DNA of 64,000 bases from an uncultured Legionellales bacterium (lineage in GTDB: Bacteria; Pseudomonadota; Gammaproteobacteria; Eutrophobiales; Eutrophobiaceae), in the NCBI GenBank assembly GCA_913046215.1, contig CAJWRJ010000001.1, positions 72,897 through 136,896 on the forward strand. Direction: 5' to 3'. Made by a program: the position numbers and the translations under genes. Positions 3,183 through 56,767 of this stretch are shown here, piece after piece. Position 1 is the stretch's first letter, and every line of letters starts with the position of its first letter. Below the pieces are notes generated by a model that had not been told where the DNA came from, ran no database searches, and saw only the letters and a list, made by a program, of their open reading frames with translations.

Positions 3183-4629
3183 ATTTTTTTGGTATTTTTT
3201 TGTGCCAGTCAGTGGCTTTTTGATACTGATGGGCTACATTTATTATAAGTGATTCTTGAAAATGATTACCAATCAGCTGCATTCCGACTGGTAATTCGTT
3301 AATAAAACCAGAGGGAATCGAGATAGCTGGTAATCCAGCGAGATTTGCCGAAACAGTATATATATCTGAAAGGTACATGCTTATTGGATCATTAAGTTTT
3401 TCATTTAATCTAAAGGCGGTTCCAGTTGTCGTTGGTCCTGCTAAAAGATCAACTTTATCAAAAACTTCCTTAAAATCATTACGTATTATTTGTCTAACTT
3501 TTTGTGCTTTTAAATAATATGCATCGTAATAACCAGCTGATAAAACATACGTACCGATCATTATTCGCCTTTTTACCTCTTTTCCGAATCCTTCTTGCCG
3601 ACTTCGACAATATAGATCTTTCAAATCTTTTGGTTCATTGCAACGATGACCAAAACGTATGCCATCATAACGAGATAAGTTAGATGAACATTCGGCTGGA
3701 GCAACAACATAATATGCAGGAATAGATAGTTCTGTGTGAGGTAAATCAACATCAATAAATTTAGCACCTAATTTTTCAAGTTCTTTAATTCCATTTTCTA
3801 CTAAGTTTGCAACATCATTATTTAAATTTTTATCAAAGTATTGTTGTGGAAGCCCAATCTTCAATCCCTTAATTGAGTCATTTAGGTTTTTTGTGTAATC
3901 TTCTATTTTATTATTTGCTGATGTTGAATCATTTCCATCATAACCTGCAATAACATTCATAATTAATGCTACATCTTCTGCTGTTTGCGCCATTGGTCCT
4001 CCTTGATCAAGACTGGAGGCAAAGGCTATCATTCCGTAACGGGAAACTCTTCCGTATGTCGGCTTTAGTCCTGTTATTCCACAAAATGATGCTGGTTGTC
4101 TTATTGAGCCACCAGTATCAGTGCCAGTAGCCGCTGGACATAATCTGGCAGCAACAGCACTTGCAGACCCACCAGATGACCCCCCTGGCACATTATCATT
4201 ATTCCATGGATTTTTTGCAGGCCCAAAGAAACTTGTTTCGTTTGATGAGCCCATTGCAAACTCATCCATATTAGTCTTCCCTAACATGACAAAACCATTT
4301 TCATTCATTTTTTTGACTAGCGTTGCATCGTATGGCGCTATAAAATTACTTAGCATTTTAGAACCACAGGTTGTCTTAACTCCATTTGTACAAAATATAT
4401 CTTTTTGTGCAACAGGCACACCTGTTAGCAATGTGTGATTACCCCTAGCACGATTTTTGTCAGCAATCTTTGCTTTTTTTATTGCTTCGTCTTCAGTAAT
4501 TGTAATAAAGCAATTTAATGAAACATTATGCTTTTTGCAGCGCTCAATATAGCCACGAATTAATTCTTCGCTACTTATCTTTTTTGATTCTAGAGCTGAT
4601 GAGAGTTCTGCTAGCGTAGATTGATGCAT
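3175..4629 (-). CDS. gatA: Glu-tRNA(Gln) amidotransferase subunit A
   Basis: 484 aa with the amidase signature [36 protein letters not shown]. Confidence 0.95.
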
Positions 4630-32901: not shown

Positions 32902-33034
32902 AAAAACAGATTCTAAAATCGAGATTCAGCCTCAATTGTCAAGGTTCATTTCAGGACAGCCAATATTTTACACTTAAAAAACTGTCCTAATTATAGGTAT
33001 AATTGACTCATATACTACGAAAGTGCCAATAATA

Positions 33035-34390
33035 ATGAAAAAAAAATATAAAAACTTTCATATTTTTGTCGGGCTGTTACTTGTGTTAAAAGTATCAATC
33101 ACCACAGCTGAAACATTACCTCAGTATGGCAAAGATATGCATCTAGGAGTACAAACTTGCTCAGGATCAACATGTCATGGTGCCGTTCAACCATGGCAGA
33201 ATTCATCTGTGCTTCAGAATGAAGCAATTACTTGGAAAAAATATGATCATCATGCTCGTGCTTTTAAGACATTAGCAAGCGAGCGTTCAAAACGTATTGC
33301 AAAAAATTTGGGAATAGAAAACCCGCAGAAAGATAATGTGTGTTTAAACTGTCATGCAAATAATGTTCCCAAAGAAAAACGTGCTAAAAATTTCATGATA
33401 AGTGATGGTGTTACCTGCGAAGCATGCCATGGAGGTGCAGAAAAATGGCTAGGCATTCATGTTTCCGGAGTGGGTGGACGTGAAGAAAATATTAAAGCTG
33501 GGCAGTACCCAACCGAGGAGCCTTTAGCTAGAGCAAAACTTTGTTTAAGTTGTCATTATGGTACTGAAAATAAATTTCTTACACATAGAATAATGGGTGC
33601 AGGCCATCCAAGGTTAGCTTTTGAACTTGACACATATACTGCGACACAACCAGCACATTACAAAGTTGATGCAGATTATAGACAAAGGAAAAGATGGAGC
33701 AATGGTGTTAGAACATGGGCAATCGGACAGGCAGTTGCTGTCGAAGAAACCTTAAATGCGTTGACAGATAAAAATAGAAATCGCCAAGGTATTTTTCCTG
33801 AACTTGTATTCTTCGATTGCCATGCTTGTCACCACCCTATGTCTAATCTTCGCTGGGAGCGAAGAGATAGTGTAGGTCTTGATCCTGGAATTCCAAAACT
33901 AAATGACGCAAACATTGTAATGTTGCGAGTAATTTCTTCTGTAGTTGATCCAGAACTTGGTAAGCGTATAGAAGAAGAGACTAAACGGTTACATCAAGCA
34001 TCAATGAAAGGCGGTGATGCAACGTTTGAAGCCGCGGATGTTTTGAGATCAACCTTAAAAGGCGTTGTTCAAAAGATTAGTAAACATACTTTTAATCAAA
34101 AAGAAATGGAAAAAATACTTAATGCGCTCTTAGAGTTTGGATTTCATGGTGAATATGTTAATTACATAGCAGCTGAACAGGCTACTTACTCAATTGGTAG
34201 CGTCATCGAGGCTATGAAAGATAGTGGAATGATAAGAGGGAAGGCGATTGAAAAAGTTAAAAAAGCAATGGACATGGCCTACGAAGCGGTTAAATCTGAT
34301 GAAAAGTATCGTCCTTCAGAATTTGTCAAAGCAATTGAAAATATAAAAAAATCCGTAAGTCCGGAATTACAGCTTTCAAAAAAACACTAG
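33035..34390 (+). CDS. secreted pentaheme c-type cytochrome (4 CXXCH + 1 CX4CH) with a non-heme alpha-helical C-terminal domain
   Basis: Signal peptide MKKKYKNFHIFVGLLLVLKVSITTAETL. Heme sites CSGSTCH, CLNCH, CEACH, CLSCH and CHACH fall in the first ~270 aa. The remaining ~180 aa are heme-free and predicted helical. Confidence 0.8.
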   Translation: MKKKYKNFHIFVGLLLVLKVSITTAETLPQYGKDMHLGVQTCSGSTCHGAVQPWQNSSVLQNEAITWKKYDHHARAFKTLASERSKRIAKNLGIENPQKDNVCLNCHANNVPKEKRAKNFMISDGVTCEACHGGAEKWLGIHVSGVGGREENIKAGQYPTEEPLARAKLCLSCHYGTENKFLTHRIMGAGHPRLAFELDTYTATQPAHYKVDADYRQRKRWSNGVRTWAIGQAVAVEETLNALTDKNRNRQGIFPELVFFDCHACHHPMSNLRWERRDSVGLDPGIPKLNDANIVMLRVISSVVDPELGKRIEEETKRLHQASMKGGDATFEAADVLRSTLKGVVQKISKHTFNQKEMEKILNALLEFGFHGEYVNYIAAEQATYSIGSVIEAMKDSGMIRGKAIEKVKKAMDMAYEAVKSDEKYRPSEFVKAIENIKKSVSPELQLSKKH

Positions 34391-34516
34391 GTGATTAGCC
34401 AAAATCTGGACAAAATTACGACCTAAATTATCATCAAGTGTTTTATAGAATAATATTATTAGATAGTGTATTTTTTCAGTATGAGATTAGAAAAATCACC
34501 GAATGTAAGTCAATAT

Positions 34517-36349
34517 ATGGTATTTCCAAAAAAGACACTTTTTTTACTCGTAGGCATTATTTTTTTCAGTGTCTCAAGTGCTAATGAACCTATTATAGAT
34601 CAAGACCTAAAATTACCCGATAATTATCAATCTCAGTGGGAGAAAGTTGCTGGTGATTCTGAACCCGTAATGCCAGGCGGGGGAGACGGATTAGATCCAC
34701 ATCTTAAAATATTACAACAATCGAAATATCCATCAGCTGCACTTTGTGGAAGATGTCACCAGCGTATTTTTACTGAGTGGGCTTCATCAAACCATGCTTA
34801 TGCATCAATTTCGCCAATGTTTCACAAGTTTGAGCAAGCGGTCAATGCATTGACGTCTGGCACGATGGGTACTTTTTGCGTGCGTTGTCATCAACAAGTC
34901 GGTACTCAAGTCGGAGAAACTCGCGAAGCACCTCTTTGGGAACGTTCACAAGTTGCTAGAGAAGGTATCACATGCATTACTTGCCATAGAGTTAATCAAG
35001 CGTTTGGAAAAGTAAATGGCGAGCGTCACATACAGCCAGGGACTATTTACGAACCAGTATATAATACTGGCGATGCGCCAGGTGTTGCAGAGGTGATATC
35101 TGAACGTGATTATTATAAAGTTGCAACGAATCCTGACGAGGAAGGCTTCCCGATACACGGCGGCGCTCAAGTTTTCGAGACAATTGGAGAGTCTGAGTTT
35201 TGTGTTTCATGCCATCAGGTCGCAGTTAATTTAGGAATTAAGTTAGAAGTTGTATGGGAACAGTACCGTGATAGTCCTGCGCATGCGAAGGGCGTGACTT
35301 GTCAAGAGTGTCATATGGGCAAGATTCCGGGAGAAGCAAAAGGCTATGATACTGGACCTGTTGCTATAGTTAATGGACGCGTTGTTGGAGATCCAAATCG
35401 TAAACATTCAAATCATGCATTTTACGGACCCGGTTATCCAATTGCTCACCCTGGTTTATTTCCATTTAATGTGCGTTCATTGAAATGGTCTGTAAAAGAG
35501 TGGCTGACATTTAATTATCGAAAGCCATGGGGTAAGCCTGATTGGGAGGATAAGCTCGAACAAGGATTGGTGGAAAAACCAGAATTTCCTGAAATATGGT
35601 CGACTAGACAGGCACGAGAAGAAGCTAGATACATAATTGGCCAGAACAATAAATTGCTCGAGAATAAAAAGCTAGATCGTTTAGCTGTAATGGAAAATGG
35701 AAGCCGTATTGATGGACCATTTTTTGATAATGGTAAACCAGAAATGGGAAAAGATTTAAAATTTCGTTATCGAATTACAAATGTTGATGAGGGACACAAT
35801 CTTCCATCTGGTTCTTTAGGCGCACAACCAGAAATCTGGCTCAATGTCGTACTCACAGATCCTGATGGCGAACGTGTATTTGAATCAGGATATGTTGACA
35901 AGTACGGAGATATGGTTGATTTACATTCGTTAGAGTTGGCCGAGGGCACAATAGAACACGATGATCAACTTTTTAATCTACAAACAAAATTTTTGACAAC
36001 CAATATTAAAGGTACTGATCGCGAGATGTATCTGCCTGTTAATTTCGATATAGATCAACTCCCATTTTTAAGACCTGCCCCACAACCAACGACTGTCATG
36101 AATCATCCACCTTTCGTGAGAATGGAGGGTCGTTCAATACCACCTTTAGCTTACCGTGATGCTAAATATAAAGTCTCCGGTGATTTAATAAAAAAATCTG
36201 GCACATATAAATTACAAGTAAGAATGCGAAGTCGTGCGGAACCAATTTATTTTATGAAATTTGTTGGTGCAACACTTGATATGGAAAAAAGAATTAATGA
36301 CTGGATGATTGATATTCATCCATACTCAGTCGATTTTGATATCAATTAA
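34517..36349 (+). CDS. secreted pentaheme c-type cytochrome with a ~300-aa non-heme C-terminal domain
   Basis: Likely start MVFPKKTLFLLVGIIFFSVSSANEP (signal peptide). Heme sites CGRCH, CVRCH, CITCH, CVSCH and CQECH. The track ORF begins at 34466. Confidence 0.8.
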   Translation: MVFPKKTLFLLVGIIFFSVSSANEPIIDQDLKLPDNYQSQWEKVAGDSEPVMPGGGDGLDPHLKILQQSKYPSAALCGRCHQRIFTEWASSNHAYASISPMFHKFEQAVNALTSGTMGTFCVRCHQQVGTQVGETREAPLWERSQVAREGITCITCHRVNQAFGKVNGERHIQPGTIYEPVYNTGDAPGVAEVISERDYYKVATNPDEEGFPIHGGAQVFETIGESEFCVSCHQVAVNLGIKLEVVWEQYRDSPAHAKGVTCQECHMGKIPGEAKGYDTGPVAIVNGRVVGDPNRKHSNHAFYGPGYPIAHPGLFPFNVRSLKWSVKEWLTFNYRKPWGKPDWEDKLEQGLVEKPEFPEIWSTRQAREEARYIIGQNNKLLENKKLDRLAVMENGSRIDGPFFDNGKPEMGKDLKFRYRITNVDEGHNLPSGSLGAQPEIWLNVVLTDPDGERVFESGYVDKYGDMVDLHSLELAEGTIEHDDQLFNLQTKFLTTNIKGTDREMYLPVNFDIDQLPFLRPAPQPTTVMNHPPFVRMEGRSIPPLAYRDAKYKVSGDLIKKSGTYKLQVRMRSRAEPIYFMKFVGATLDMEKRINDWMIDIHPYSVDFDIN

Positions 36350-36359
36350 AAAAAAGATC

Positions 36360-38825
36360 ATGCCTCTAAAACATAATAAATTAAATAAGATTTATAGTTT
36401 ATTTTTATATAGTGCACTAGTTTTATTTTCATACCAGCAGCCATTATATGCGGATGTGTTGACTTCAGTTAATGATTGGGCGAAGGCTTGGGCATCACAA
36501 AATGTTGATCAATATTTTGAAAGTTATGCTGAAGATTTTGCGCCCTCTCAAGAACATACTAAAAAAACTTGGAAATCTCAAAGAGAGAGTAGATTGTTGT
36601 CTCCAAGTTTTATCAAGGTGACATTATCTAATATAGAAATCAGCCAGCACTCTGAGGATTTTGCTGATGTGCTTTTTACACAAAACTATAAGTCAGATAG
36701 CTATTCTGATGAAGTGACAAAACAATTGAGAATGCAAAAAATTGATGACAAATGGCTGATTATAAAGGAAAAAACTATAAAAATAAGACAGAAAACAGAA
36801 CTCCAATTAGTGAAAAAAAATGAGGTTTTAGAGGACACCACAACAGTCCAAATCGAACATGATGTTAAAGAGGCCTTGAATAGTTGGTCAAAGGTTTGGT
36901 CATCTCAGGATATTGATGGTTATTTTGCAGCTTACGCTGAAGATTTTTCGCCATCCAACATATCAAACAAAAAAAAATGGAAAAAACAACGTCATAATAG
37001 AGTCATTAGTCCAAGCTATATAAAGGTAACTCTTACTGATGTGAAGATTACACAACACAGTAAAAATAATGTCGACGTAGTATTTAATCAAAATTATGAA
37101 TCTAGTAATCACAGCGATGATGTTAGAAAACTTATTTCCATGCAGAGGGAAAATGAGCGATGGTTGATCACCAAGGAGAGAGTAAAAAAAGTTTTGATTG
37201 ATATTAGTGAAGACCTATCTTCACAAGACAAAACTAATCTTATAGCAGAATTAGATTCTCACAGTGATAGTTCAATAAATTATGCAGATGTTGTTCCTGT
37301 TGAAGATGATTTGAAAGATGAAAGTATTTTACGAAGAAGAGATGTACCCGCCGATACTGTTTTAGAGAAGAGAAGTGGTAGTCCTAAACATAAAAGTCAC
37401 CAAGCGCCACCCGAAATGGATCCTCATGTTCGTCCATCTGAATTTGAGCCAGATCTTTTTGGAAGTGATCCAGTATATCCAGATAATGTTTATGATGTTG
37501 CTGAGCAAATAAAAATTTATGGTGGAAAAACTCCATTTGATGAACCACGTCCAATACTAGAATTTGGTTATCCTCTTTATTCCGAGGGTGCTTTGGGTAG
37601 AACCTATGATGTTATTGGAGAGAAAAACTTGTTAAGACCACAGCTACTTGTATACGGTGATTTTAGAAGTGCTCTTGCTTTTAACGACAATGGCAACAAG
37701 GAGATTGGTCAGATCGCTGCAAGGTTGAATCTTGATGTTGATTTAAAATTAACCGCAACAGAACGTATTCATCTTTTTCTTCGTCCTATTGATAAAAATA
37801 ATAATTTTCTTCGTCACGAGTTTTTTGGCGATGATCATAATGACTTCGATTTTGTGTTAGATGCAAATCTTGAGACTATTTATTTTGAGGGTGATATAGG
37901 GGCCATTCAATCGGGATTAACAAATGAATGGGCAACTTATGATTTGCCCTTTGCTATTGGTTTCATGCCTTTGCTTTTTCAGAATGGAATATGGCTTGAT
38001 GACGCATTTGTAGGTGCTGCATTTGCTATTCCAGCGATGAATTCTCCAAAGTACGATATATCAAATATGGATATTAGCTTTTTCACTGGTTTTGACAAAG
38101 TAACAACTGCAGCATTAAAAAATGGAGCTGGTCAAATAGAGGATAGTAAGGGAAATGTTTTTGGTGTAAATGCATTCGTGGAAACTCGACAAGGATACTT
38201 AGAAGCCGGTTATGGTTTCATTGATGATAAACGTAATGGAAATATATTAAGTGGTTTTGATCATCATAGTTTGACTGCAGCATGGACAAAGAGATATAGA
38301 GGGAAACTTTCAAACTCAATACGTGGTATCTGGACATTTGGACAAACTCCGAATGGAGGCAATACCCAGACTGCTGATGGGTTTGTCATTCTCATAGAGA
38401 ACTCACTTATAACTAGCAAGCCATCAACTTTAATTCCATATGGCAATTTTTACGTTGGTGTGGATAGACCTCAACCACTTGTACGTGGCAATGATGGGCT
38501 TCTTAAAAATACAGGAATAGTCTTTGAAACCGACGGTTTAACAGGATTTCCAAAACTTGATTCCTCTGCTCAAGATGTATTTGGTGGCGCAATTGGTATT
38601 CAATACCTCTTTGATTTATCTAGACAGGCTGTATTTGAAGTTGCAACTGTTCAGCCATTTGGCGGTCAGTCTGCGACGATTGTTGGCGATCAGTACGGAT
38701 TGAGCGCACGATATCAGCATAATTTAAATGATCGTTGGCTTATAAGGACGGACGCAATGATTGGAATTCTTAATAATGCAGAGAATATTTCTGGTATTCG
38801 TCTCGAATTGCGCCGTAAATTCTAA
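36360..38825 (+). CDS. outer-membrane beta-barrel protein with two tandem N-terminal NTF2/SnoaL-like domains (putative porin partner of the cytochromes)
   Basis: Signal peptide MPLKHNKLNKIYSLFLYSALVLFSYQQPLYA. Two ~110-aa repeats (VNDWAKAWASQNVDQYFESYAEDFAPS...WLIIKEK and LNSWSKVWSSQDIDGYFAAYAEDFSPS...WLITKER). The ~540-aa C-terminal region shows alternating amphipathic strands and a terminal ...GIRLELRRKF, the OMP C-terminal Phe signature. Confidence 0.6.
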   Translation: MPLKHNKLNKIYSLFLYSALVLFSYQQPLYADVLTSVNDWAKAWASQNVDQYFESYAEDFAPSQEHTKKTWKSQRESRLLSPSFIKVTLSNIEISQHSEDFADVLFTQNYKSDSYSDEVTKQLRMQKIDDKWLIIKEKTIKIRQKTELQLVKKNEVLEDTTTVQIEHDVKEALNSWSKVWSSQDIDGYFAAYAEDFSPSNISNKKKWKKQRHNRVISPSYIKVTLTDVKITQHSKNNVDVVFNQNYESSNHSDDVRKLISMQRENERWLITKERVKKVLIDISEDLSSQDKTNLIAELDSHSDSSINYADVVPVEDDLKDESILRRRDVPADTVLEKRSGSPKHKSHQAPPEMDPHVRPSEFEPDLFGSDPVYPDNVYDVAEQIKIYGGKTPFDEPRPILEFGYPLYSEGALGRTYDVIGEKNLLRPQLLVYGDFRSALAFNDNGNKEIGQIAARLNLDVDLKLTATERIHLFLRPIDKNNNFLRHEFFGDDHNDFDFVLDANLETIYFEGDIGAIQSGLTNEWATYDLPFAIGFMPLLFQNGIWLDDAFVGAAFAIPAMNSPKYDISNMDISFFTGFDKVTTAALKNGAGQIEDSKGNVFGVNAFVETRQGYLEAGYGFIDDKRNGNILSGFDHHSLTAAWTKRYRGKLSNSIRGIWTFGQTPNGGNTQTADGFVILIENSLITSKPSTLIPYGNFYVGVDRPQPLVRGNDGLLKNTGIVFETDGLTGFPKLDSSAQDVFGGAIGIQYLFDLSRQAVFEVATVQPFGGQSATIVGDQYGLSARYQHNLNDRWLIRTDAMIGILNNAENISGIRLELRRKF

Positions 38826-38834
38826 ATAATTATA

Positions 38835-40532
38835 TTAAATTTTTTCTTTTGGCATCATCAAGTCTTCGCGATGAAAGCCATGACATTCAGTACAGGTGCT
38901 TTTTACTTTTGTTGTCGTTGTTTCTCCACCATGGCATTCCTGACAAGTTGTAATTGACGGGAGCAGTATATCGGTAGCTTTTTCACTTTTTGTTGCATCA
39001 TGACATGTTGTACATTCTCTATCTTTGTGCGGTTTATGATTAAAGAAACTTTTTGGTAGCCACTTTGTTGGTACATGAACAGTTGCTATATCCCATCTAC
39101 CCGTTTTTTTATTTTCTACAATTTGGTGACATTCTCCACATAGTCCACGACCATATCTTCCTTGTACAATTTCTTCGGCTTTTGCTTCAGCCCATTCTAG
39201 AGCCGCCTTCTTTTTTTCTTTAGTATCAGGTTTATCGCCTATTAGTTTACGAAAAGTTGATGTTTCATCATTTAATGTATTTGACTCAATAAAATTGCCT
39301 CGAAGTGCAAACTCGGCATATGTTCCTATAATATATTCTTTTGCTAAAGAAATATTTCCATGCGGCATCTCTCTATTAGGTGCTTGAGGTTCAAATTTTA
39401 AGTCGTGGCAACTGGCGCAGTGTTTTTCAAAACTTACAGGGAGTAAAGCAACACCTCCAGTTTCAGGCTCATGGCAGAATCCACACTGAAGAACCGTTCG
39501 TGTTCCATTTGGATGTCTAACTCCATTTTCTTTTAGATGCTTATTATGTGGAAATTTCAAATTCGATCGATCTATTGGTTTTGGTTTTTTTTGATCAATC
39601 GTCACTCTCTCAAAAGTTAAAGGCTGATGAGTTTTTATGAGTGTAGGACGAAATTGAGGATGTTCGTTAAAGTTTGAGACATTTTTTAATTTAGAATTCT
39701 CAGCAACATCTAGGATTTCACTATGGCAGTTGCTACAAAATCTTTCAGTGGTGATAAGCAAGCCCTGATCGCCATTATGTTCTTTATGACAATCCTGACA
39801 CTGTTGTCCATCTAAAGAGGCGCTTGGAAATATAGACGGGTCCGCATGGTGCCCGGCATCATCATGACAATCAAAACATACTTTATTTCCTACTTGTTGA
39901 AATGCATCTGTATGGCATGTTTCGCAGCGATCGCCAAAATGTGCATGCACACTAGAATGAGGGCCTGACAACCAAATTTTATCAGCGGTTGCTAAAATTC
40001 CATTTTTTTTTGTTTCACTTACTGTTTCATTTTTTTTATATTTTATCGTATATGCGGTAAGTGGCCCCAATATTCCAAGCGTGATAATTCCAATAAATAA
40101 AACCCACGCCCATCCTCTAGTACTGAGTCCAAGCGAATCAAACTGTGTATTTGATCGTTTTTTAAATGCTTCTAATTCATCACCTAGTGGACGCGAGTAC
40201 TCAATAGTTAATACAGCATCATATCCATCTTCATTATCTAAGACCTCGATATCATATGGACCAAGATGAATTTTATCTCCCGTTTTTACGGTTGATTTAG
40301 TAAGGATTTGATCATTAACCTGAAAATCACTATCTCCTTGACCCTCTAAGTATAGTTCTCCCGAACGCTCTGTTATTTCAAGTTGAATTAATAGAATTCT
40401 TGGATCAGTTAAGTGAACCTCGCATTCTGAACCACGTCCAAAGCGAATTGCAGGAGATTCTATATCTTCGTCACGCTGAGCATATCCCCCAGAACGAGTT
40501 TTTTTAAGAAGATGTCTAATAAGTACTTTCAT
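38835..40532 (-). CDS. FHA-domain / single-TM / periplasmic decaheme c-type cytochrome fusion
   Basis: 565 aa. N-terminal FHA-like fold (IRFGRGSECEVHLTDPRILLIQLEITERSGELYLEGQGDSDFQVNDQIL...GDKIHLGPYDIEV), TM helix (WAWVLFIGIITLGILGPLTAY), then ten CXXCH sites: CETCH, CFDCH, CQDCH, CSNCH, CGFCH, CASCH, CGECH, CTTCH, CQECH, CTECH. Confidence 0.75.
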   Translation of the reverse strand: MKVLIRHLLKKTRSGGYAQRDEDIESPAIRFGRGSECEVHLTDPRILLIQLEITERSGELYLEGQGDSDFQVNDQILTKSTVKTGDKIHLGPYDIEVLDNEDGYDAVLTIEYSRPLGDELEAFKKRSNTQFDSLGLSTRGWAWVLFIGIITLGILGPLTAYTIKYKKNETVSETKKNGILATADKIWLSGPHSSVHAHFGDRCETCHTDAFQQVGNKVCFDCHDDAGHHADPSIFPSASLDGQQCQDCHKEHNGDQGLLITTERFCSNCHSEILDVAENSKLKNVSNFNEHPQFRPTLIKTHQPLTFERVTIDQKKPKPIDRSNLKFPHNKHLKENGVRHPNGTRTVLQCGFCHEPETGGVALLPVSFEKHCASCHDLKFEPQAPNREMPHGNISLAKEYIIGTYAEFALRGNFIESNTLNDETSTFRKLIGDKPDTKEKKKAALEWAEAKAEEIVQGRYGRGLCGECHQIVENKKTGRWDIATVHVPTKWLPKSFFNHKPHKDRECTTCHDATKSEKATDILLPSITTCQECHGGETTTTKVKSTCTECHGFHREDLMMPKEKI

Positions 40533-40535
40533 TTC

Positions 40536-41378
40536 TTACCAATAAAAAAATACAGCTAGTATGTGAGAGAAAAGTGCAGCCAATAAACCTATCGATAGTG
40601 GAATATGAAAAAATAACCACACTCTTAGAATTACTTTTATTTGAATATCGCGTCTCGCTCGTCTGAGTAATTTTGTTTTTTTTGCAAGTAAAGCGATTAC
40701 CTTTGATATGTTTTGATCGCGAAGACCCATATCAGCAAATTTTTCTTCAATTAAATTCCTAGCATTTAGGGTTGGACAGTCAATATTTTTTGGTGATAAT
40801 TTTTCTATTATATTTCCACCTATACTAGTCTCAGTGGCTGCTTTAAGTAGAGCCGTATTTATTTCTTCAGGCAGTTGCTGACCAGCTTTAAGAATATCTT
40901 GATCTAGTTCTGAAATTTGCCCCATCATTTCATCTAGAGACAGTCCAGCTCGATTTTTTGTCATTAGCTTTGGATAATATGCATAAATAAATACCCCAAC
41001 AACACCACTTAACACAGTTAACAGCATAAGGATGTAAGCAATGGAATGGATATTCCATCCAATCTGAAAACCACTATGTAGAGTTGCGGTAACTACAAGA
41101 GCGAGTCCAAGATAAATATGAGCAGACAACCAAACCTTTAATCCTGTTGCACTAACAGCATATTGCCTTTTTCTAACTCCAAACCAAGTTAACCACAAAA
41201 CTAAAACAGCTGAAATTATCCCCAATGTGTATCCAAGCCATGATCCGCCATTTGGTTCACCCAGGGGGTTATGCCATATATAAAGAACGATTGAGATAAA
41301 AGCCAATGCGACGGCATACCAAAGAAACTTGAGACCTTTATAGATAAAAAAAGAATCATGGACATTACGTGAACTCAT
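40536..41378 (-). CDS. polytopic inner-membrane protein with conserved intramembrane His (putative b-heme / quinol-interacting subunit)
   Basis: Start MSSRNVHD, placed by a TGATATG stop/start junction with the upstream gene; 280 aa. Five TM helices with His in helices 3-5 (LSAHIYLGL, WNIHSIAY, FFHIPLSIGLLAALFSHIL). A ~100-aa soluble loop lies between TM4 and TM5. The track ORF is extended to 41579. Confidence 0.55.
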   Translation of the reverse strand: MSSRNVHDSFFIYKGLKFLWYAVALAFISIVLYIWHNPLGEPNGGSWLGYTLGIISAVLVLWLTWFGVRKRQYAVSATGLKVWLSAHIYLGLALVVTATLHSGFQIGWNIHSIAYILMLLTVLSGVVGVFIYAYYPKLMTKNRAGLSLDEMMGQISELDQDILKAGQQLPEEINTALLKAATETSIGGNIIEKLSPKNIDCPTLNARNLIEEKFADMGLRDQNISKVIALLAKKTKLLRRARRDIQIKVILRVWLFFHIPLSIGLLAALFSHILAVFFYW

Positions 41379-41379
41379 A

Positions 41380-43788
41380 TCACTCGCTCCCGTCTCTAAT
41401 AAAGTCCATGAATTCGTCTGGTTTGACACGTATCGCCGCCCCAGTTGGGCAAGCACGCACACAAGCAGCACCACCTTTAATATCCTTACACATATCGCAC
41501 TTAACTGCTGTTTTGCGAGCATCCTCCGGTGCTCTTTCTCGGTAACCATAGTCTTCGCCTGGTCCAGGACCTTTTCCAAAAAGAAGCCAAGAAAACAAAT
41601 TTGGTTTTTCTGGTGGTTCAGGCGCCATTTGAATTACCCCATATGGGCAATTTTTTTGGCAGTTACCACAACCAATACAGTCATTTGTAATGTAAACTTC
41701 ACCGTCAGGGTTTCTTTTAATAGCATCGGGAGGACAGTCCGTCATACAGTGCGGATGTTCGCAATGTCGGCAACTTGTTGGAACATGCACGTTTGCAAAT
41801 GTTGGTCCTGCCTCACGATTTAATCTCGAAATACCCCTGTGTGTCTCGGCACAGGCTTTTTCACAATTATCACATCCAACACATAACGATTCGTTTATTA
41901 AAAGCACATCAGTTGCTTCACCTATACCTTCTCCCATTAAAAATTCTACAATACTTCCAGCCTCAGGTTGCTCTATCATTTTTTCTGTTGAAACAATACG
42001 TTCACCATATTTCTCTTCGATTTCTTTTTGAAGAGAAGGATTTTCATCAACTAATTTGCGGAAGATTTCACCATCTATCTTAATTGTTTCACAATCAACC
42101 GCGGCTTTAATTGTTGCTGTTCGATTTAAATCTGACATTAATGCCATTTCCCCAACATAATTACCTGCAGCGACGTAAGCAAGGGTTACCTCCTTACCAC
42201 CTATTCGTTTCGATACCATCACTGAGCCTTTACTTATGAGATAAAGCGCATCACCCTCATCACCCTCATTAAATATAACTTTACCTTTACGAAAGGTTTC
42301 TATTGAAGCTGAGTCTGCCAATTTTTGTATTGCATTAATGTCGAGGGCGCTTGCGATATAAGTTTGAATTTGCCTTACGATAGCCTCTTTATCCATAGAA
42401 TTTCGTAAAGAACGGACATCCTCTCTTAATTTAAGCATCGTACGACGAGGCGTTTCAATTAATATCGTATCATCTGCATTAGATAAAATTGTTGCCGAAC
42501 GTCTACGACCCGATATTAATCCCACTTCTCCAAAAAATGCACCTTGCTCCAAGACAACAAACTTAGATGGATCATCCTCGCTAGTTTGTATTTTGACTGA
42601 GCCCCTGAATATTGTGTAGACACTATTCGTATAATCTCCCCGTTCAAAAATTACTGTTCCATTAGGCGGCGCAGTTACGGTTGATTCAACTAACATTTCT
42701 CTTTCCATTAATGGGTTTAGTTCTTCAAATATAGGAAGTCTTGCCCTCACTTCTTTTAAAAAAGAATCATTATCAAAATCCTTTATATCTTTTAAAGTTT
42801 TAGTAATTATTGGTTCATCAGCTGGATCTAATTCCGTGTTACCGTTGATATATTCAATGACTTCATAACCCTGATTTATTGCATGTTTAATTAACGGATA
42901 TCCACCTAAGGAGCCAACTATATATAGGCCTTTAACATTTGATTCGTAGGTTTTGCTTACTTCTGGCAACGCGCTGCGTGCATCAGATGGAAAAGTAACT
43001 CCACAGGCTTCAACAAACTTTCGTGGCGGTGCTGCACCAAGTCTAGCAATCACTCTGTCACACTCTATTGTTACATCGCCATCAGGCGTATCAAAAGTTA
43101 ATGTTCCTTCCGAACATTCCTTTGAACTACTATTGTATAGGGGAGTAATACGTCCTCTATCAATTTCAGCTAAAATAGCCGCTTCATTTGCTTCTTTTGC
43201 ACGTGAAAATTCATTACCACGATTAGCTATATAAACTGTGTTATGCGTACACAAACCAAGTGCATTTTCTATTGCAGCATCACCCGCACCGATAACAATG
43301 ATAGTTTCATGCTCATATTCATCTGGGTCATCTAATTGATATTGAATATGCGTGACATCATCTATTCCAGGTATTCGTAAAGTATTCAGATTACCTTGAA
43401 GACCTATTGCAAGAACGATTGATTCTACTTTAATAATATCTTTATTTTTTAGTGTAAGCTCAAACTTTCCTTTTGTTCCTGAAACAGATTTAACTTCAGA
43501 ATTGTATAGAATATTAACTTGGTGATTTTTTAATGCTAGATTCCATCTATCGAGAACATCTTCTCTGCTTCCCATTTTAAAATCGATATCTGAACGCAAG
43601 GGAAGCACGTCCGGAGTTGCCATAACATGCTTACCTTTTTGAAACTTGTAAATTGTGTCCGATACATGATCTGCTTTTTCAATTAATACATGTCGTAAAC
43701 CTAATACAGATGCATGCGCTGCTGCACTAAGACCAGCTGGTCCAGAACCTATTATTGCAACTTGAAAAATTGATTCTTTACTCGCCAT
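41380..43788 (-). CDS. FAD-dependent pyridine-nucleotide oxidoreductase fused to two cyclic-nucleotide-binding domains and a poly-[4Fe-4S] ferredoxin domain
   Basis: 802 aa. Rossmann fold VAIIGSGPAGLSAAAHA plus a second dinucleotide site IIVIGAGDAAIENA. Two cNMP-binding segments (FFGEVGLISGRRRSATI; YVGEMALMSDLNRTATIKA). C-terminal Cys clusters CVGCDNCEKAC, CRHCEHPHCMTDCP, CIGCGNCQKNCP and CDMCKDIKGGAACVRACP. Confidence 0.8.
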   Translation of the reverse strand: MASKESIFQVAIIGSGPAGLSAAAHASVLGLRHVLIEKADHVSDTIYKFQKGKHVMATPDVLPLRSDIDFKMGSREDVLDRWNLALKNHQVNILYNSEVKSVSGTKGKFELTLKNKDIIKVESIVLAIGLQGNLNTLRIPGIDDVTHIQYQLDDPDEYEHETIIVIGAGDAAIENALGLCTHNTVYIANRGNEFSRAKEANEAAILAEIDRGRITPLYNSSSKECSEGTLTFDTPDGDVTIECDRVIARLGAAPPRKFVEACGVTFPSDARSALPEVSKTYESNVKGLYIVGSLGGYPLIKHAINQGYEVIEYINGNTELDPADEPIITKTLKDIKDFDNDSFLKEVRARLPIFEELNPLMEREMLVESTVTAPPNGTVIFERGDYTNSVYTIFRGSVKIQTSEDDPSKFVVLEQGAFFGEVGLISGRRRSATILSNADDTILIETPRRTMLKLREDVRSLRNSMDKEAIVRQIQTYIASALDINAIQKLADSASIETFRKGKVIFNEGDEGDALYLISKGSVMVSKRIGGKEVTLAYVAAGNYVGEMALMSDLNRTATIKAAVDCETIKIDGEIFRKLVDENPSLQKEIEEKYGERIVSTEKMIEQPEAGSIVEFLMGEGIGEATDVLLINESLCVGCDNCEKACAETHRGISRLNREAGPTFANVHVPTSCRHCEHPHCMTDCPPDAIKRNPDGEVYITNDCIGCGNCQKNCPYGVIQMAPEPPEKPNLFSWLLFGKGPGPGEDYGYRERAPEDARKTAVKCDMCKDIKGGAACVRACPTGAAIRVKPDEFMDFIRDGSE

Positions 43789-44090: not shown

Positions 44091-44167
44091 GCGCCCGTAG
44101 CTCAGTTGGATAGAGTACCTGGCTACGAACTAGGGGGTCGGAGGTTCGAATCCTTCCGGGCGCGCCA
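44091..44167 (+). tRNA. tRNA-Arg (anticodon ACG)
   Basis: GCGCCCGTAGCTCAGTTGGATAGAGTACCTGGCTACGAACTAGGGGGTCGGAGGTTCGAATCCTTCCGGGCGCGCCA. 77 nt canonical cloverleaf, close to E. coli argV. Confidence 0.92.
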
Positions 44168-44197: not shown

Positions 44198-44926
44198 TTA
44201 CTGTCGCCTTTTAAGCCACATCCAAATACCGGTAGCGGAAATAACAAGCATTAGAATTGCAACCAGATCCATAAAGTAGGTACCCCATTTTCCTACAACA
44301 CGGCCGCTATGCATATCAAGCAATACTCTTTCAATTGTCAGACCTTTGCCGCGGTACTCGTTAAAAATAGCAATTCTTAGTTTCTCGGATATATTATTTG
44401 ATGTGTCCGACCAATTTGCAGAAAGCAGATCATGTTCATTCCAGTTCAAAATATCCAAATTGACGCGATAATAACCATGTGCCGATTTAATTATTACATT
44501 ATCCTTATCATCAACACCAATTGCTTTCATCCCTGCGGGAACACCCTCGGCACCTGATAAAGATTCTAAAAGTTTACCGTCTTCAGTAAGCACCATTAAT
44601 TTTCCATCATAACCAACGACAAATGTGTTATTTATATAAACAACACCAATTAGGTTTTCTACATTAGTAATAATTTCTATGTCATTGAAATAAACACGTT
44701 GACCAAGTTGTGTTATCCAGTTGTTATTGTAGGAAGGGTATGCGATAGGTTCGGAGTTTGGGCTAATTTGATAAAGATCAAGCAACCATTCCATCTTTAT
44801 AAATGTTGTATTTAACTTGAACTTTTCACTGTGGTTTAATGCGATACCGCTAATAGCAAGAAAAATAACAAATATTACGATGAATATTCCTATCTTTTTG
44901 TGCCACCTTTGTATAAAAAGAAACAT
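44198..44926 (-). CDS. PepSY-associated TM-helix family membrane protein (two TM helices flanking a periplasmic domain)
   Basis: 242 aa. N-terminal QRWHKKIGIFIVIFVIFLAISGIALNH and C-terminal LDMHSGRVVGKWGTYFMDLVAILMLVISATGIWMW are typical PepSY_TM helix signatures with conserved His. Confidence 0.6.
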   Translation of the reverse strand: MFLFIQRWHKKIGIFIVIFVIFLAISGIALNHSEKFKLNTTFIKMEWLLDLYQISPNSEPIAYPSYNNNWITQLGQRVYFNDIEIITNVENLIGVVYINNTFVVGYDGKLMVLTEDGKLLESLSGAEGVPAGMKAIGVDDKDNVIIKSAHGYYRVNLDILNWNEHDLLSANWSDTSNNISEKLRIAIFNEYRGKGLTIERVLLDMHSGRVVGKWGTYFMDLVAILMLVISATGIWMWLKRRQ

Positions 44927-44956
44927 ACACCTATTCTAGGATGCAATTATTTATTT

Positions 44957-45484
44957 TCAATTTTTATTATCGATATATTGATCTAGAAATAGAGCTAGAC
45001 GTGCTAATTTTATCAAAGCATCAACTGACAATGTTGCTCCACTAATACCATCAATTTTTCTATCTAATTTTGTATCAGCCTTAAGAGAGGCATCTGCAAA
45101 TTGTTCTGTAAAAAAAGGATATCTTACTTCCCATCCTCTTGATTCTCTAAAAACTAGTACTTTCACATCTAGAATCTTTCCTTTTGAAGTAACATATCCA
45201 GTCGTAATTGGCTTGTCTCTGCCAATTCTCTCTAAAATCCAGGCTTTTTTAGACCCATCATCCCAATATCGAAGTCGTAATGGCTTGAATTCATCTCCCA
45301 GTATTTTTTTTATTTCTTTCTTTAGCTCTTTTTTAAGCCATAGTTTTTTTGGATTTGGAGGGTTATTGTTAAACACGTCCGATAAAAATTTTTCAGGTTC
45401 TAAGTAAGTTCCCTTTGCATAAGAGTGTAAACTCCAACTCTGAGTTAGTAGAAATAAAAAGATATATAAAGTCAGTTTTGTCAT
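44957..45484 (-). CDS. secreted FMN-binding domain protein (predicted ApbE flavinylation target)
   Basis: 175 aa with a signal peptide. The C-terminal KIDGISGATLSVDAL matches the D-x-[ST]-G-A-T-x-[ST] motif of NqrC/RnfG-type FMN_bind domains, whose Thr (here T151) is covalently flavinylated. Confidence 0.65.
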   Translation of the reverse strand: MTKLTLYIFLFLLTQSWSLHSYAKGTYLEPEKFLSDVFNNNPPNPKKLWLKKELKKEIKKILGDEFKPLRLRYWDDGSKKAWILERIGRDKPITTGYVTSKGKILDVKVLVFRESRGWEVRYPFFTEQFADASLKADTKLDRKIDGISGATLSVDALIKLARLALFLDQYIDNKN

Positions 45485-45589
45485 ATTTAGTTATAAGCCT
45501 ACAAAAAAAATAGGGCACTTACAAAAGTGCCCTAAATATATCACCACGAGGATATTACCGTTGGTACGATAATTCTTAAAATTTATTAT

Positions 45590-46756
45590 TTAGAACGAAT
45601 ACCCTACACCAAGATAGAAGTTATCTGTGGTTGTATTATCATCAACATCTTTAACCGATTCAAAGGTACCTTTGAAAACTACCTTTGGATGTGGCCAGAT
45701 ATTAAAACCTGTTGAGGTACGTTCTTCTTCGTTTCTAGAGCCTGTAAAACCTCTGTCTATGTCTTCGTATCTGATGTAGACACCTACGTCGGTATTACTA
45801 TTACCCACAGTCCAACGATAGGCTGGCTCAACATACCAACCTTCTGAGTCTTTACCATCAGCTGATAAGTTCTTATTCATATCCCATCCCGCATAAAGAG
45901 CGCGGAAACCTAAACCCGAGCTATGTTTATAATCGACATGAGTTGTAAATAAGTGAGCATCATTTCCTGATACTAGTTCACCACCGATGTTACTTTGGAA
46001 TTGGTATGAAGCAGATAATTCAAGACCTGGAACACCGGTATAACGGAGTCGACCAGTTGCTGCCGGATATTCTGCGTTTGCTTCTGCTACCTTTTGTCTA
46101 CCAGATCGTATGTTGCTACTCGTTTCTAACCCTGAGTGAAGTACGATGTCATAGTTAACACCTGGTGCAACTTCCCCATTGAAACCAAAACCTGCTTCCC
46201 ACCAAGTTGAAGGAATGATTCTTTTTTCTACTTCATTTCGCTCAACTCCATAGAATGTATTAGGTTCATGTGTAACATTCAACATACCAACAGGTAGAAT
46301 ATCAAGACCGGCACGGAAATGATGATTTTCACTAAGGTCAATTTCAATCCATGCTTGTTCTAATTCAACCTCACCTTCTTTACCCTCTCCAGCTAATGAA
46401 TGCTCTAATTCCCATTCTGAGAAGAAGTGGATGTTATCGGTGTAGTCATGACCTATGTATAGGACATAACGGTGGAAGTCGACTTGATCTGTTCCATCAC
46501 CAAATTTGTAATGAAGTTCACCATAGCCGCCCATCTGAGTTTTATCAGCCCAATTACCAGTTGCACCACCAGCACCAGATTCTACAGCTTCTGCGGTAGC
46601 ATCAAGTTGCTCCTGGAGCTCTTCAATAACTTTTTGCTGTTCTTGTATAGTTTGCCACATTTCTTCTGCTGTCGGTGCTGCTTTAGCGGCAGAGACAGTA
46701 AAAAACATGAATAGAATCATGTAGATAACTCTATTAATGTGATTATTCGTATTCAT
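45590..46756 (-). CDS. outer-membrane beta-barrel porin-like protein
   Basis: 388 aa. Signal peptide (an alternative start is MILFMFFTVSAAKA at 46720), an N-terminal coiled-coil (WQTIQEQQKVIEELQEQLDA), alternating amphipathic strands, and a C-terminal ...NFYLGVGYSF. Confidence 0.6.
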   Translation of the reverse strand: MNTNNHINRVIYMILFMFFTVSAAKAAPTAEEMWQTIQEQQKVIEELQEQLDATAEAVESGAGGATGNWADKTQMGGYGELHYKFGDGTDQVDFHRYVLYIGHDYTDNIHFFSEWELEHSLAGEGKEGEVELEQAWIEIDLSENHHFRAGLDILPVGMLNVTHEPNTFYGVERNEVEKRIIPSTWWEAGFGFNGEVAPGVNYDIVLHSGLETSSNIRSGRQKVAEANAEYPAATGRLRYTGVPGLELSASYQFQSNIGGELVSGNDAHLFTTHVDYKHSSGLGFRALYAGWDMNKNLSADGKDSEGWYVEPAYRWTVGNSNTDVGVYIRYEDIDRGFTGSRNEEERTSTGFNIWPHPKVVFKGTFESVKDVDDNTTTDNFYLGVGYSF

Positions 46757-54922: not shown

Positions 54923-55405
54923 TCAATCGCGAAAGTTTATATATTGAAGAGGAATGTTTATCTTTGTTTTTTTTAGTTCGGAGATTGCATTTTGTAGATC
55001 ATCACGTTTTTTTCCAGAAATTCTCACCTGTTCACCTTGAATTGAGGCTTGTATTTTTAGCTTACTATTTTTTATCATCTTCACAATTAATTTTGCTTTA
55101 TCTTTATCTATTCCTTTTTTTATTTTTATAATTTGCCTAGCCTCATTATTATTTTCTACTATTTCTTCATATTCAAGACATCGTATGTCTATTCCTCGTT
55201 TATTAAGTTTATTTTTTAGGATGTCATTTATTTGTTTAATTTGAAATTCTGATTTAGATACAATCGTTAGCACCCATTCATTGAGATCTATTTTTGAATC
55301 TGTTCCCTTGAAGTCAAAACGTGTACTAATTTCCCTATTTGCTTGATCGATAGCATTAGTCAATTCTTGCTGCTCAATTTCTGAAACCACATCAAAAGAA
55401 GGCAT
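54923..55405 (-). CDS. yajQ: YajQ-family (UPF0234) nucleotide-binding protein
   Basis: 160 aa, MPSFDVVSEIEQQELTNAIDQANREISTRFDFKGT. Colinear with YajQ. Confidence 0.88.
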   Translation of the reverse strand: MPSFDVVSEIEQQELTNAIDQANREISTRFDFKGTDSKIDLNEWVLTIVSKSEFQIKQINDILKNKLNKRGIDIRCLEYEEIVENNNEARQIIKIKKGIDKDKAKLIVKMIKNSKLKIQASIQGEQVRISGKKRDDLQNAISELKKTKINIPLQYINFRD

Positions 55406-55765: not shown

Positions 55766-56767
55766 CTACTTTGAAATAAATGGCTCAAAATATTCATTGT
55801 ATTCCTCATAAAAATTTTCATCATTTTTTATGATTAAATATACTCCTATTTTTAGTTCATTTGCCAATTCTATTGTTTTTGCTGGACCTAAGACCATGAA
55901 TGCTGTCGCCAGAGCATCTGCGTTCATTGCTGTTTTATCCAGTACGGTAACTGATGCCAATTTATGTTTTATTGGTTTACCGGTATTCGGGTTAATTGTA
56001 TGCGAGTAGCGCACTCCATTTTTTTCAAAGTAGTTCCTATAATCACCAGATGTAGCCATGGCTATATCTTTAAGTCCAATAATTTTTACAAGATTATTAT
56101 TAGGATTTTCAATTCCTATTTGCCATACTTCATTATCTTCATTTGTCCCTTTAGCAATCAACTCCCCACCAATTTCAACTAAATAATTTTCTAAGTTATA
56201 GCTATTTAAATATAGTGCAATTTTATCTACTGCAAAACCTTTTGCTATTCCTGAGAGGTCTACATATAGATCAGGGTGTAATTTTTTTATACTTGTAGTT
56301 TCCTTGTTTAGATAGATTTTCTTATATCCAATGTTTTTCTTTATTAATTCAATCTCTTCATTAGATGGTATTTTATTTTCTGATTTATTAGGACCAAAAC
56401 CCCATAGATTTACCAAAGGACCAACCGTTATATCAAACGCTCCATTTGTAGTTTTACTTATAGTATTTGCATGAGAGATTACTTTGAATAAGTCATCAGA
56501 TATGAGATTCGAATCTAAGCTATTTGAAAAATTGATCACGGATAATTCTGAATCTACTATATATGTCGACATTTTCTGATTAATTTCTAATAGTATTTTT
56601 TCGATGTCAGCACGTATTTTTTCTTGATTAACTACGGCATCAGCCGTTTTAATTTTTATACTATAGGTGGTTCCCATAGTTAATCCATTGATTAACACAA
56701 TTTTATAATTATTATTTTGACAGGCACCGGTGCCTATCATTAGGAATATTATTATCAAAATTCGCAT
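55766..56767 (-). CDS. apbE: FAD:protein FMN transferase (ApbE family) lipoprotein
   Basis: 333 aa. Lipobox (IGTGAC), MGTTYSIKI, FDITVGPL...WGFGP and DLSGIAKGFAVDKIA are ApbE hallmarks. Confidence 0.88.
   Translation of the reverse strand: MRILIIIFLMIGTGACQNNNYKIVLINGLTMGTTYSIKIKTADAVVNQEKIRADIEKILLEINQKMSTYIVDSELSVINFSNSLDSNLISDDLFKVISHANTISKTTNGAFDITVGPLVNLWGFGPNKSENKIPSNEEIELIKKNIGYKKIYLNKETTSIKKLHPDLYVDLSGIAKGFAVDKIALYLNSYNLENYLVEIGGELIAKGTNEDNEVWQIGIENPNNNLVKIIGLKDIAMATSGDYRNYFEKNGVRYSHTINPNTGKPIKHKLASVTVLDKTAMNADALATAFMVLGPAKTIELANELKIGVYLIIKNDENFYEEYNEYFEPFISK

Follow-up and report, generated by a model that had tools for sequence, protein, structure and literature searches.

Gene E of a 64,000-nt stretch of chromosomal DNA from an uncultured Legionellales bacterium (contig CAJWRJ010000001.1; the whole stretch is referred to below as the window) heads a three-gene operon, E-F-G, whose products are interpreted here as an inner-membrane complex that would export electrons from NAD(P)H to the periplasm and would carry a cyclic nucleotide monophosphate (cNMP) switch. 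This interpretation is held tentatively, at slightly below even chances. An earlier note, made from the DNA letters alone, had described E as a thioredoxin-reductase-like flavin adenine dinucleotide (FAD) module fused to two cNMP-binding domains and four Cys clusters, and had proposed direct cyclic AMP (cAMP) or cyclic GMP (cGMP) control of electron input into the heme chain. The features of the operon were as follows.

41380..43788, minus strand: gene E (PtdE-type), an 802-aa cytoplasmic flavo-iron-sulfur protein with tandem cNMP-binding domains and no transmembrane (TM) helix or helix-turn-helix (HTH)
42868..43767, minus strand: FAD/NAD(P)H two-dinucleotide-binding module of E, aa 8-307 (from Pfam, alignment to 7a7b and 3ab1, and conservation)
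42379..42756, minus strand: cNMP-binding domain A of E, approximately aa 345-470, with the phosphate-binding cassette FGEVGLISGRRRSAT at aa 419-433 (nt 42490-42534)
41989..42357, minus strand: cNMP-binding domain B of E, approximately aa 478-600 (best Pfam stretch 497-583), with the phosphate-binding cassette VGEMALMSDLNRTAT at aa 545-559 (nt 42112-42156)
41419..41901, minus strand: HycB/HydN-type ferredoxin tail of E, aa 630-790, with 16 Cys in four groups and four predicted [4Fe-4S] clusters
40536..41378, minus strand: gene F (PtdF-type), 280 aa with five TM helices, a putative di-heme cytochrome b
38835..40532, minus strand: gene G (PtdG-type), 565 aa, with an FHA-like domain, one TM helix and ten CxxCH motifs
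40248-40463, minus strand: N-terminal FHA-like domain of G (Pfam PF00498)
40053-40109, minus strand: TM helix of G, aa 142-160
38868-39947, minus strand: the ten CxxCH motifs of G

The frame of E was uninterrupted over its 802 aa, and a Tara Oceans metagenome contig encodes the identical protein, the three genes there being called at 802, 280 and 565 aa as well. Pfam annotation returned all three kinds of domain that the earlier note had named (Pyr_redox_2, two cNMP_binding and Fer4), and the fusion was borne out both by these matches and by directly read motifs: Pyr_redox_3 (2.4e-31) and Pyr_redox_2 (4.2e-23) at aa 8-307, cNMP_binding in two stretches (4.9e-35; 119.8 bits against a cutoff of 27.5) and the dicluster models Fer4_7, Fer4_9 and Fer4_11 across aa 630-790. 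Chance matches would score far lower than these. Only about 35 aa separate cNMP-binding domain B from the first Cys group. HTH models were absent from the Pfam matches at E<=0.01; as the earlier note had read it, E has no DNA-binding domain, and it is an enzyme or redox subunit. Against the NCBIfam CRP model the match was restricted to the nucleotide-binding part (98 bits, cutoff 266), and on this score and the absence of a C-terminal HTH (HTH_Crp_2) a Crp paralogue was rejected.

E, F and G agree in description and synteny with the PtdE, PtdF and PtdG proteins of a cluster, ptdABCDEFG, that was named in a 2023/24 preprint by Elbon et al., where its function 'remains completely unknown' (bioRxiv 10.1101/2023.11.21.568154). 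Gene E is in this respect an ordinary member of a named, uncharacterised family. A homology search with E returned 6987 proteins at E<=1e-10; almost all of the top 120 were 780-840 aa long with the same Pfam set, and their source annotation was limited to 'cyclic nucleotide-binding domain-containing protein'. In a scan of one genome per species, relatives of E were found in at least 595 genomes, spanning Alpha-, Beta- and Gammaproteobacteria and some metagenome-assembled genomes (MAGs) labelled Acidobacteriota.

Both phosphate-binding cassettes of E were intact. In an alignment of 75 sequences from fetched loci, which was used for the conservation counts of E and with which a smaller alignment agreed, G420, E421 and R430 of domain A and G546, E547, R556 and A558 of domain B were conserved in 75/75. 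Residues 380-599 aligned in tandem with PKA RII-alpha and with the PKG-type cNMP domains of Plasmodium and Toxoplasma, and both cassettes fell in register with ligand-binding PKG/PKA sites, so that the cassette degeneracy which the earlier note had allowed for was not found. A strict regular expression for the cassette gave an apparent loss in 13/56 homologs; this was rejected on the alignment, which showed variation at the residue after the Arg. As in the PKA regulatory subunit and PKG, the two domains are consecutive, and as in these proteins and CRP the cassettes are canonical; unlike them, E has no kinase-inhibitor segment, no HTH and a presumed redox output. The invariant cassettes lend weight to the idea of cNMP control, which is plausible, and direct cNMP gating of electron flow through E may reasonably be proposed. 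Alternatively, the two domains may bind neither cAMP nor cGMP and may serve as a scaffold or in dimerisation, or may sense another ligand as in CooA, NtcA and CprK. Numerous proteins of the CRP/FNR superfamily do lack cNMP binding, the inspected neighbourhoods contained no cyclase, and the R-[ST]-A motif gives no ligand specificity, since it is shared by cAMP binders (CRP) and cGMP binders (PKG). Superfamily proteins that bind no cNMP typically lose the signature residues, however, whereas the Gly-Glu...Arg-[ST]-Ala signature is kept in both cassettes in 75/75 sequences, and the alternative is judged unlikely.

The ferredoxin tail contains 16 Cys between residues 636 and 780, arranged as C636xxCxxCxxxC, C673xxCx4CxxxCP, C704xxCxxCxxxCP and C764xxCx8CxxxCP, and all 16 were conserved at 100%. 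The four groups of four Cys described earlier were therefore confirmed, the strict CxxCxxCxxxC spacing in two of them only; the longer spacings of the other two are typical of HycB/DmsB-type four-cluster proteins. Fer4_11 (PF13247) matched the tail with 37.4 bits (cutoff 26.2), NCBIfam matches were to AegA, HydN, ArrB, DmsB and NrfC, and the tail aligned with HycB of formate hydrogenlyase (7z0s, 8.1e-19) and with HycB3 and HycB4 of the hydrogen-dependent CO2 reductase (HDCR). HycB, HycB3 and HycB4 are four-[4Fe-4S] ferredoxins, and the tail of E is predicted to be a four-cluster ferredoxin of the HycB/HydN/DmsB type. That the Cys groups could instead be structural zinc sites, as the earlier note had considered, draws on nothing more than the generic zinc-binding ability of four-Cys motifs; the CxxCxxCxxxC(P) spacing, the CP ends and the group order match HycB, HydN, NrfC and DmsB, as do the sequence matches listed above, and this reading is regarded as extremely improbable.

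The flavin module carries GSGPAG at aa 14 and GAGDAA at aa 167, followed by N189-R190...R196-K198. Among solved structures, aa 10-294 matched the YpdA/Bdr protein 7a7b best (2e-25), followed by 3ab1, 5ygq and 6gar, which are thioredoxin reductase (TrxR)-type ferredoxin-NADP+ reductases. E shares with these proteins the two Rossmann motifs and an Arg-rich NADPH loop, and it resembles the TrxR-type ferredoxin-NADP+ reductases. No CxxC was found in aa 1-340 of the window protein or of 56/56 full-length homologs, whereas TrxR has one, and the catalytic Cys14 of Bdr (GGGPCG) aligned with Ala18 of E (GSGPAG), a position held by G, A or S in 46/48 homologs. Thioredoxin reductase (TIGR01292; 54 bits, cutoff 343; no redox CxxC) and YpdA/Bdr bacillithiol-disulfide reductase (TIGR04018; 136 bits, cutoff 340; Cys14 replaced by Ala18) were both rejected as identities of E. 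Because CxxC is absent, Cys14 is replaced and the scores lie far below the YpdA and TrxR equivalog cutoffs, the module is read as a plain NAD(P)H:FAD dehydrogenase of TrxR fold and not as a disulfide reductase; of the earlier 'thioredoxin-reductase-like' label, the fold was retained and the enzyme was not. The NAD(P)H-binding GxGxxA/G motif was conserved in 75/75, R190 in 74/75 and R196 in 72/75. The N189-R190...R196-K198 loop resembles the TrxR loop that holds the 2'-phosphate of NADPH and suggests that E may prefer NADPH.

The relation of the three parts of E was followed by searching the Fe-S tail alone against 1.84 billion representatives, which gave 140 matches at E<=1e-30, and ten of these of differing length were scanned. 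The cNMP domains were fused to the tail in 10/10, and the flavin module was missing in 7/10, six of which (P0383, P0395, P0400, P0457, P0497 and P0515; 464-564 aa) consisted of two cNMP domains and the Fe-S part. The conserved regulatory unit in these sequences would thus be the cNMP pair with the ferredoxin, not the flavin. Because the pair was found with the Fe-S module in every case and the flavin only in some, any cNMP gating probably acts on the ferredoxin, as an Fe-S wire, and not on the flavin. In locus L087 the split-type gene (2433-3863) lies between a cytochrome c'-like gene upstream and an F-like gene downstream, and the split type was also seen in L088. A further relative, P0421 (L089, 5316-8720; also L090), is an 1134-aa protein with two FHA domains fused N-terminal to the flavin module; it is followed by an F-like gene, by a G that keeps its own FHA-like domain and by a set of HbpS/LVIVD genes. 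The fusion offers a Rosetta-stone hint that the FHA fold may work in the cytoplasm alongside E and may act on or with it.

E is joined to F and G by very short junctions. The stop codon of E (41380-41382) is followed after 1 nt by the ATG at 41378 that opens the 280-aa frame of F, and the stop of F is followed after 3 nt by the ATG of the 565-aa frame of G. Upstream of E lie approximately 300 AT-rich bases and then a tRNA-Arg gene on the other strand. From these junctions and this upstream boundary, E heads a three-gene operon. Of the earlier statement that E heads the cytochrome operon, its place as first gene of E-F-G stands, and the porin, pentaheme and tetraheme genes lie on the opposite, convergent strand. 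A longer, TTG-initiated open reading frame at F was set aside as an artefact, the 280-aa F matching the independent Tara Oceans gene call. A promoter and terminator scan gave fewer promoter-like sites than were found in shuffled sequence.

F has five TM helices, with a cytoplasmic helical insert of approximately 110 aa between TM4 and TM5. Across 67 homologs H87, H101, H111, H258 and H272 were invariant, H87/H101 on TM3 and H258/H272 on TM5 each forming an i/i+14 pair; cytochrome b, NOX/FRE and FdnI show the same bis-His geometry, with such pairs on two helices. The match of F to PF01292 was below the cutoff (15.3 bits against 30.1), but weak matches to this model were found in 32/34 family members (best 2.4e-7), and the family also matched Ferric_reduct and DUF4405 weakly. 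PDB sequence searches with F or G matched only designed repeat proteins. The predicted model of F (predicted local distance difference test (pLDDT) 83) resembles the di-heme bundles of CybB, STEAP4, cytochrome b561 and cytochrome b. F is probably a di-heme cytochrome b, in which H87 and H258 would face the cytoplasm and H101 and H272 the periplasm according to the positive-inside rule.

The FHA-like domain of G scored 24.6 bits on the Pfam model (cutoff 20.7), and the same domain scored on the YscD cytoplasmic-domain model; a PDB sequence search with this region gave no meaningful match. G32 and R33, the Gly-Arg of the fold, were invariant across homologs, and exactly ten CxxCH motifs were counted in 56/58 of them. 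G is read as a membrane-anchored decaheme cytochrome whose FHA-like domain is predicted to be cytoplasmic.

Synteny of the three genes was widespread. F followed E in 69/84 loci and G was present in 71/84, the exceptions being mostly contig ends together with a rearranged betaproteobacterial layout. In the latter (L039, L040, L075, L077, L080 and L082, from Burkholderiales and other Betaproteobacteria MAGs) E was directly preceded by the tetraheme gene, in the same orientation, and was not followed by an F-like gene; a G-like gene lay approximately 9 kb upstream. The tetraheme, pentaheme and porin set was found within 10 kb of E in only 5/84 loci, and the tetraheme gene in 24. About half of the loci (L001, L004, L089 and about 35-40 others) had an alternative partner set downstream of G, comprising a small protein of 136-310 aa, a protein of about 650-740 aa with three HbpS-like domains, a decaheme protein of 1100-1300 aa with LVIVD repeats and, between these last two, an unknown protein (about 600-780 aa); no literature on this HbpS-like/LVIVD-decaheme set was found. 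Being coupled to two different downstream sets, E-F-G behaves like a movable inner-membrane unit able to work with different outer partners.

In the export reading introduced at the outset, electrons would pass from NAD(P)H to FAD (aa 8-307), through the wire of four [4Fe-4S] clusters (aa 630-790) and into F, where they would cross two stacked b hemes, the first held by H87 and H258 on the cytoplasmic side and the second by H101 and H272 on the periplasmic side. From F they would reach the ten c hemes of membrane-anchored G, and from G the soluble tetra- and pentaheme cytochromes and the outer-membrane porin that are convergently encoded; the transfer need not pass the quinone pool. The tandem cNMP domains between flavin and ferredoxin would form an allosteric switch that lets electrons leak only with cAMP or cGMP bound, or only without, and the cytoplasmic FHA-like domain of G may help to dock or regulate E. 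Tight post-translational control of this kind would be rational, because outward transfer dissipates membrane potential and reductant.

The proposed design would be that of FdnH/FdnI turned around and would function like NOX/FRE. A four-cluster protein with a PF01292-type di-heme b is the FdnH/FdnI design, and NADPH, FAD and two b hemes make up that of NOX/FRE. E-F would share with FdnH/FdnI and with Hya/Hyb the four-[4Fe-4S] wire feeding a PF01292-type di-heme b. In Fdn and Hya, however, the cluster protein is periplasmic and flow runs inward to quinone, whereas E is predicted to be cytoplasmic and is fused to flavin and cNMP domains. Eukaryotic NOX, FRE and STEAP are not homologous to E at the flavin module, and E-F-G differs from them by the added Fe-S wire, the decaheme acceptor, the cNMP domains and the separate polypeptides.

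Several observations weigh against export under cNMP control. Nucleotide cyclases and Ser/Thr kinases or phosphatases were not found in the annotated part of the window or near homologs, and specifically no nucleotide cyclase or Ser/Thr kinase was seen beside L001, L002 and L004. The canonical phosphothreonine-binding Ser and His of the FHA fold correspond in G to Leu47 and Gln50 (in a manual register only), and since these positions hold Leu and Gln, phosphopeptide recognition by the domain is doubtful. The AlphaFold model of E (29 sequences; mean pLDDT 69, predicted template modelling score 0.55) falls below a pLDDT of 50 in the Fe-S tail, and the FAD, cNMP and cluster geometry is not usable from it. 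NAD(P)H is not the donor throughout, since the split type of E has no flavin module. PF01292-type proteins usually carry a quinone site, so that the quinone pool may be involved. Finally, both preprints on the cluster call its function unknown (10.1101/2023.11.21.568154; 10.64898/2026.01.22.701106).

Involvement of quinone is central to the second interpretation that was considered, in which F and G together would form a split bc-cytochrome resembling CbcL/MtoC and in electron exchange with the quinone pool, either oxidising quinol or reducing quinone. E would then be an accessory that either passes NAD(P)H electrons on to quinone through F, which would make it a regulated alternative NAD(P)H:quinone oxidoreductase, or adjusts the redox poise of the b hemes. 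F matches PF01292, the HydC/FdnI/CybB family with its quinone-binding members, weakly but family-wide; CbcL, an inner-membrane quinol oxidase of extracellular electron transfer, joins a nine-heme c domain to a di-heme b domain of HydC/FdnI type (PMC6295460); and the authors who described a related cluster in Ferrigenium favour a quinone link (10.64898/2026.01.22.701106). The likeness of F-G to Geobacter CbcL, MtoC and MtrH would lie in the combination of multiheme c with HydC/FdnI-like di-heme b at the inner membrane, in pathways of extracellular electron transfer (PMC6295460). CbcL, however, has both parts in a single chain with six TM helices, is linked to quinol and has neither a cytoplasmic Fe-S/flavin partner nor FHA or cNMP domains. 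No quinone-site motif was identified in F-G, a plain quinol oxidase needs neither a wire of four [4Fe-4S] clusters nor an NAD(P)H flavoprotein, and E is as strictly syntenic as F and G. This interpretation is considered unlikely.

Flow may also run inward, from periplasmic or extracellular donors (Fe(II) or reduced N or S species) through G and F to quinone or to a cytoplasmic acceptor at E. An Fe(II) oxidiser carries the trio and expresses it under all tested conditions (10.64898/2026.01.22.701106), and ptd genes occur in nitrite oxidisers, PtdA being NrfA-related (10.1101/2023.11.21.568154). Transfer from c hemes to NAD(P)+ (about -320 mV) against the membrane potential would, however, be doubly uphill with no coupling ion pump encoded, and most hosts are aerobic heterotrophic Alpha- and Gammaproteobacteria; inward flow is accordingly regarded as very unlikely.

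The ptd preprint describes a cNMP-binding 4Fe-4S protein followed by a 'ferric-reductase-like' TM protein and a decaheme cytochrome in marine bacteria, with the pentaheme PtdA, the porin PtdB and the tetraheme PtdD as neighbours (10.1101/2023.11.21.568154). The ptd genes are transcribed in an oxygen-deficient zone. All six of the PtdE/F/G and PtdA/B/D types are present in the window. Locus L052 has the canonical order penta-porin-tetra-tetra-E-F-G, whereas the window has its A/B/D-type genes ordered D-A-B and opposite in strand to E-F-G, its PtdB-like protein bears two extra NTF2-like domains, and a separate FAD protein (PtdC) is lacking, the flavin module being fused to E instead. The preprint counts two clusters in PtdE, whereas the window sequence supports four; it predicts a periplasmic PtdG, whereas G of the window pairs a TM anchor with an FHA domain on the cytoplasmic side; and it gives no mechanism for the cluster. 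None of the PtdE accessions in its Table S7 was among those in the look-up of E cluster members, and the listed contigs were not among the fetched loci. In Ferrigenium straubiae a 'nonaheme cytochrome' cluster has been described in a 2026 preprint with FHA, one TM helix and multiheme c, an adjacent protein with five TM helices and a cytosolic [4Fe-4S] protein (bioRxiv 10.64898/2026.01.22.701106, section 6.3.2). It differs from the window in having nine hemes instead of ten. Its authors, who suggest that electrons run inward to quinone, recognised no motif in their TM protein, whereas the F family shows invariant His pairs. The paper leaves cNMP and FAD domains unmentioned; its protein may be of the split type seen in L087, and the split-type relative probably corresponds to this '[4Fe-4S] protein'.

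Neither preprint analysed regulation or recognised the heme-b ligands of F. The earlier claim that such a system was not described has accordingly to be narrowed: the family was already named (PtdE) and the trio noted in Ferrigenium, with function given as unknown and regulation left unanalysed. Literature searches found no characterisation of the protein and no discussion of its cNMP control, and no characterisation of proteins combining FHA, multiheme and cNMP or of a cNMP-TrxR fusion. To our knowledge, protein-level gating of a respiratory or extracellular electron conduit by a second messenger has no characterised precedent, and none was found in the literature searched. The present analysis newly supplies the count of four clusters, shows that the flavin module has no redox Cys and that the cNMP pair is tied to the ferredoxin and not to the flavin, points to a di-heme signature in F, gives a membrane topology for G and finds E-F-G coupled to two outer sets.

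The surroundings of the operon in the window included the following features.

33023..34390, plus strand: c554-like tetraheme cytochrome (PtdD-like), first gene of the convergent plus-strand unit
34466..36349, plus strand: pentaheme cytochrome (PtdA-like)
36309..38825, plus strand: porin-like protein, PtdB-like in its C-terminal approximately 520 aa (ending ...RRKF), with two extra N-terminal Cds6_C/NTF2-like domains
44091..44167, plus strand: tRNA-Arg(ACG), the upstream boundary of the E-F-G operon

The tetraheme, pentaheme and porin-like genes converge on E-F-G. The Cds6_C/NTF2-like domains of the porin-like protein were detected by Pfam (2.4e-30), and its PtdB-like C-terminal region had no Pfam match; the NTF2-like domains are missing from the 524-560-aa PtdB homologs of L002, L027 and L052, which points to a lineage-specific extension. 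Just upstream of the tRNA and the E operon lies a second trio of envelope-redox appearance (44198-46756, minus strand), made up of a 388-aa secreted protein, a 175-aa FMN_bind protein and a 242-aa PepSY_TM protein. The secreted protein resembles outer-membrane proteins, ends ...GVGYSF and had no Pfam match. The same trio adjoins E in the Tara contigs L085 and L086, an ApbE flavin transferase is encoded approximately 9 kb from it (55766-56767, minus strand), and the FMN_bind/PepSY_TM trio could be a ferric or flavin reductase system functionally related to E-F-G. A DUF520/YajQ-family protein (54923-55405, minus strand) has no evident link to E-F-G; the family has been reported as binding nucleotides or cyclic-di-GMP in some bacteria. 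The window is chromosomal and contains the housekeeping genes rpoA, gatBA, mreBC, pbp2-rodA, guaBA, recA, alaS and lysC. Its RecA was 99% identical to that of marine MAGs labelled 'Legionellales bacterium' at NCBI, and matches from Tara Oceans were numerous. Its GC content is approximately 35%, with approximately 39-41% in the housekeeping block at 20-36 kb against approximately 31-36% elsewhere, and 35-38% across E-F-G and the Ptd-like region (36-44 kb). No signs of mobile elements were noticed around the shift at 20-36 kb or its flanks.

Taken at its widest, the export reading would make E-F-G a new class of quinone-independent NAD(P)H:periplasmic-cytochrome oxidoreductase with a cNMP-switched Fe-S wire that plugs into at least two outer modules, and would place such exporters in hundreds of mostly aerobic Proteobacteria, abundant marine lineages included; as a joint claim this is thought rather doubtful. 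If it is true, many aerobic marine and soil Proteobacteria would have a switchable NAD(P)H route across the inner membrane to multiheme cytochromes, bypassing CymA, ImcH and CbcL, the quinol dehydrogenases of known extracellular-electron-transfer pathways. Such a route would bear on reductive iron acquisition, on cryptic metal and nitrogen redox cycling in the ocean and on extracellular redox chemistry in organisms not deemed electroactive, and an electron-transfer chain would for the first time be seen under allosteric control by a cyclic nucleotide.

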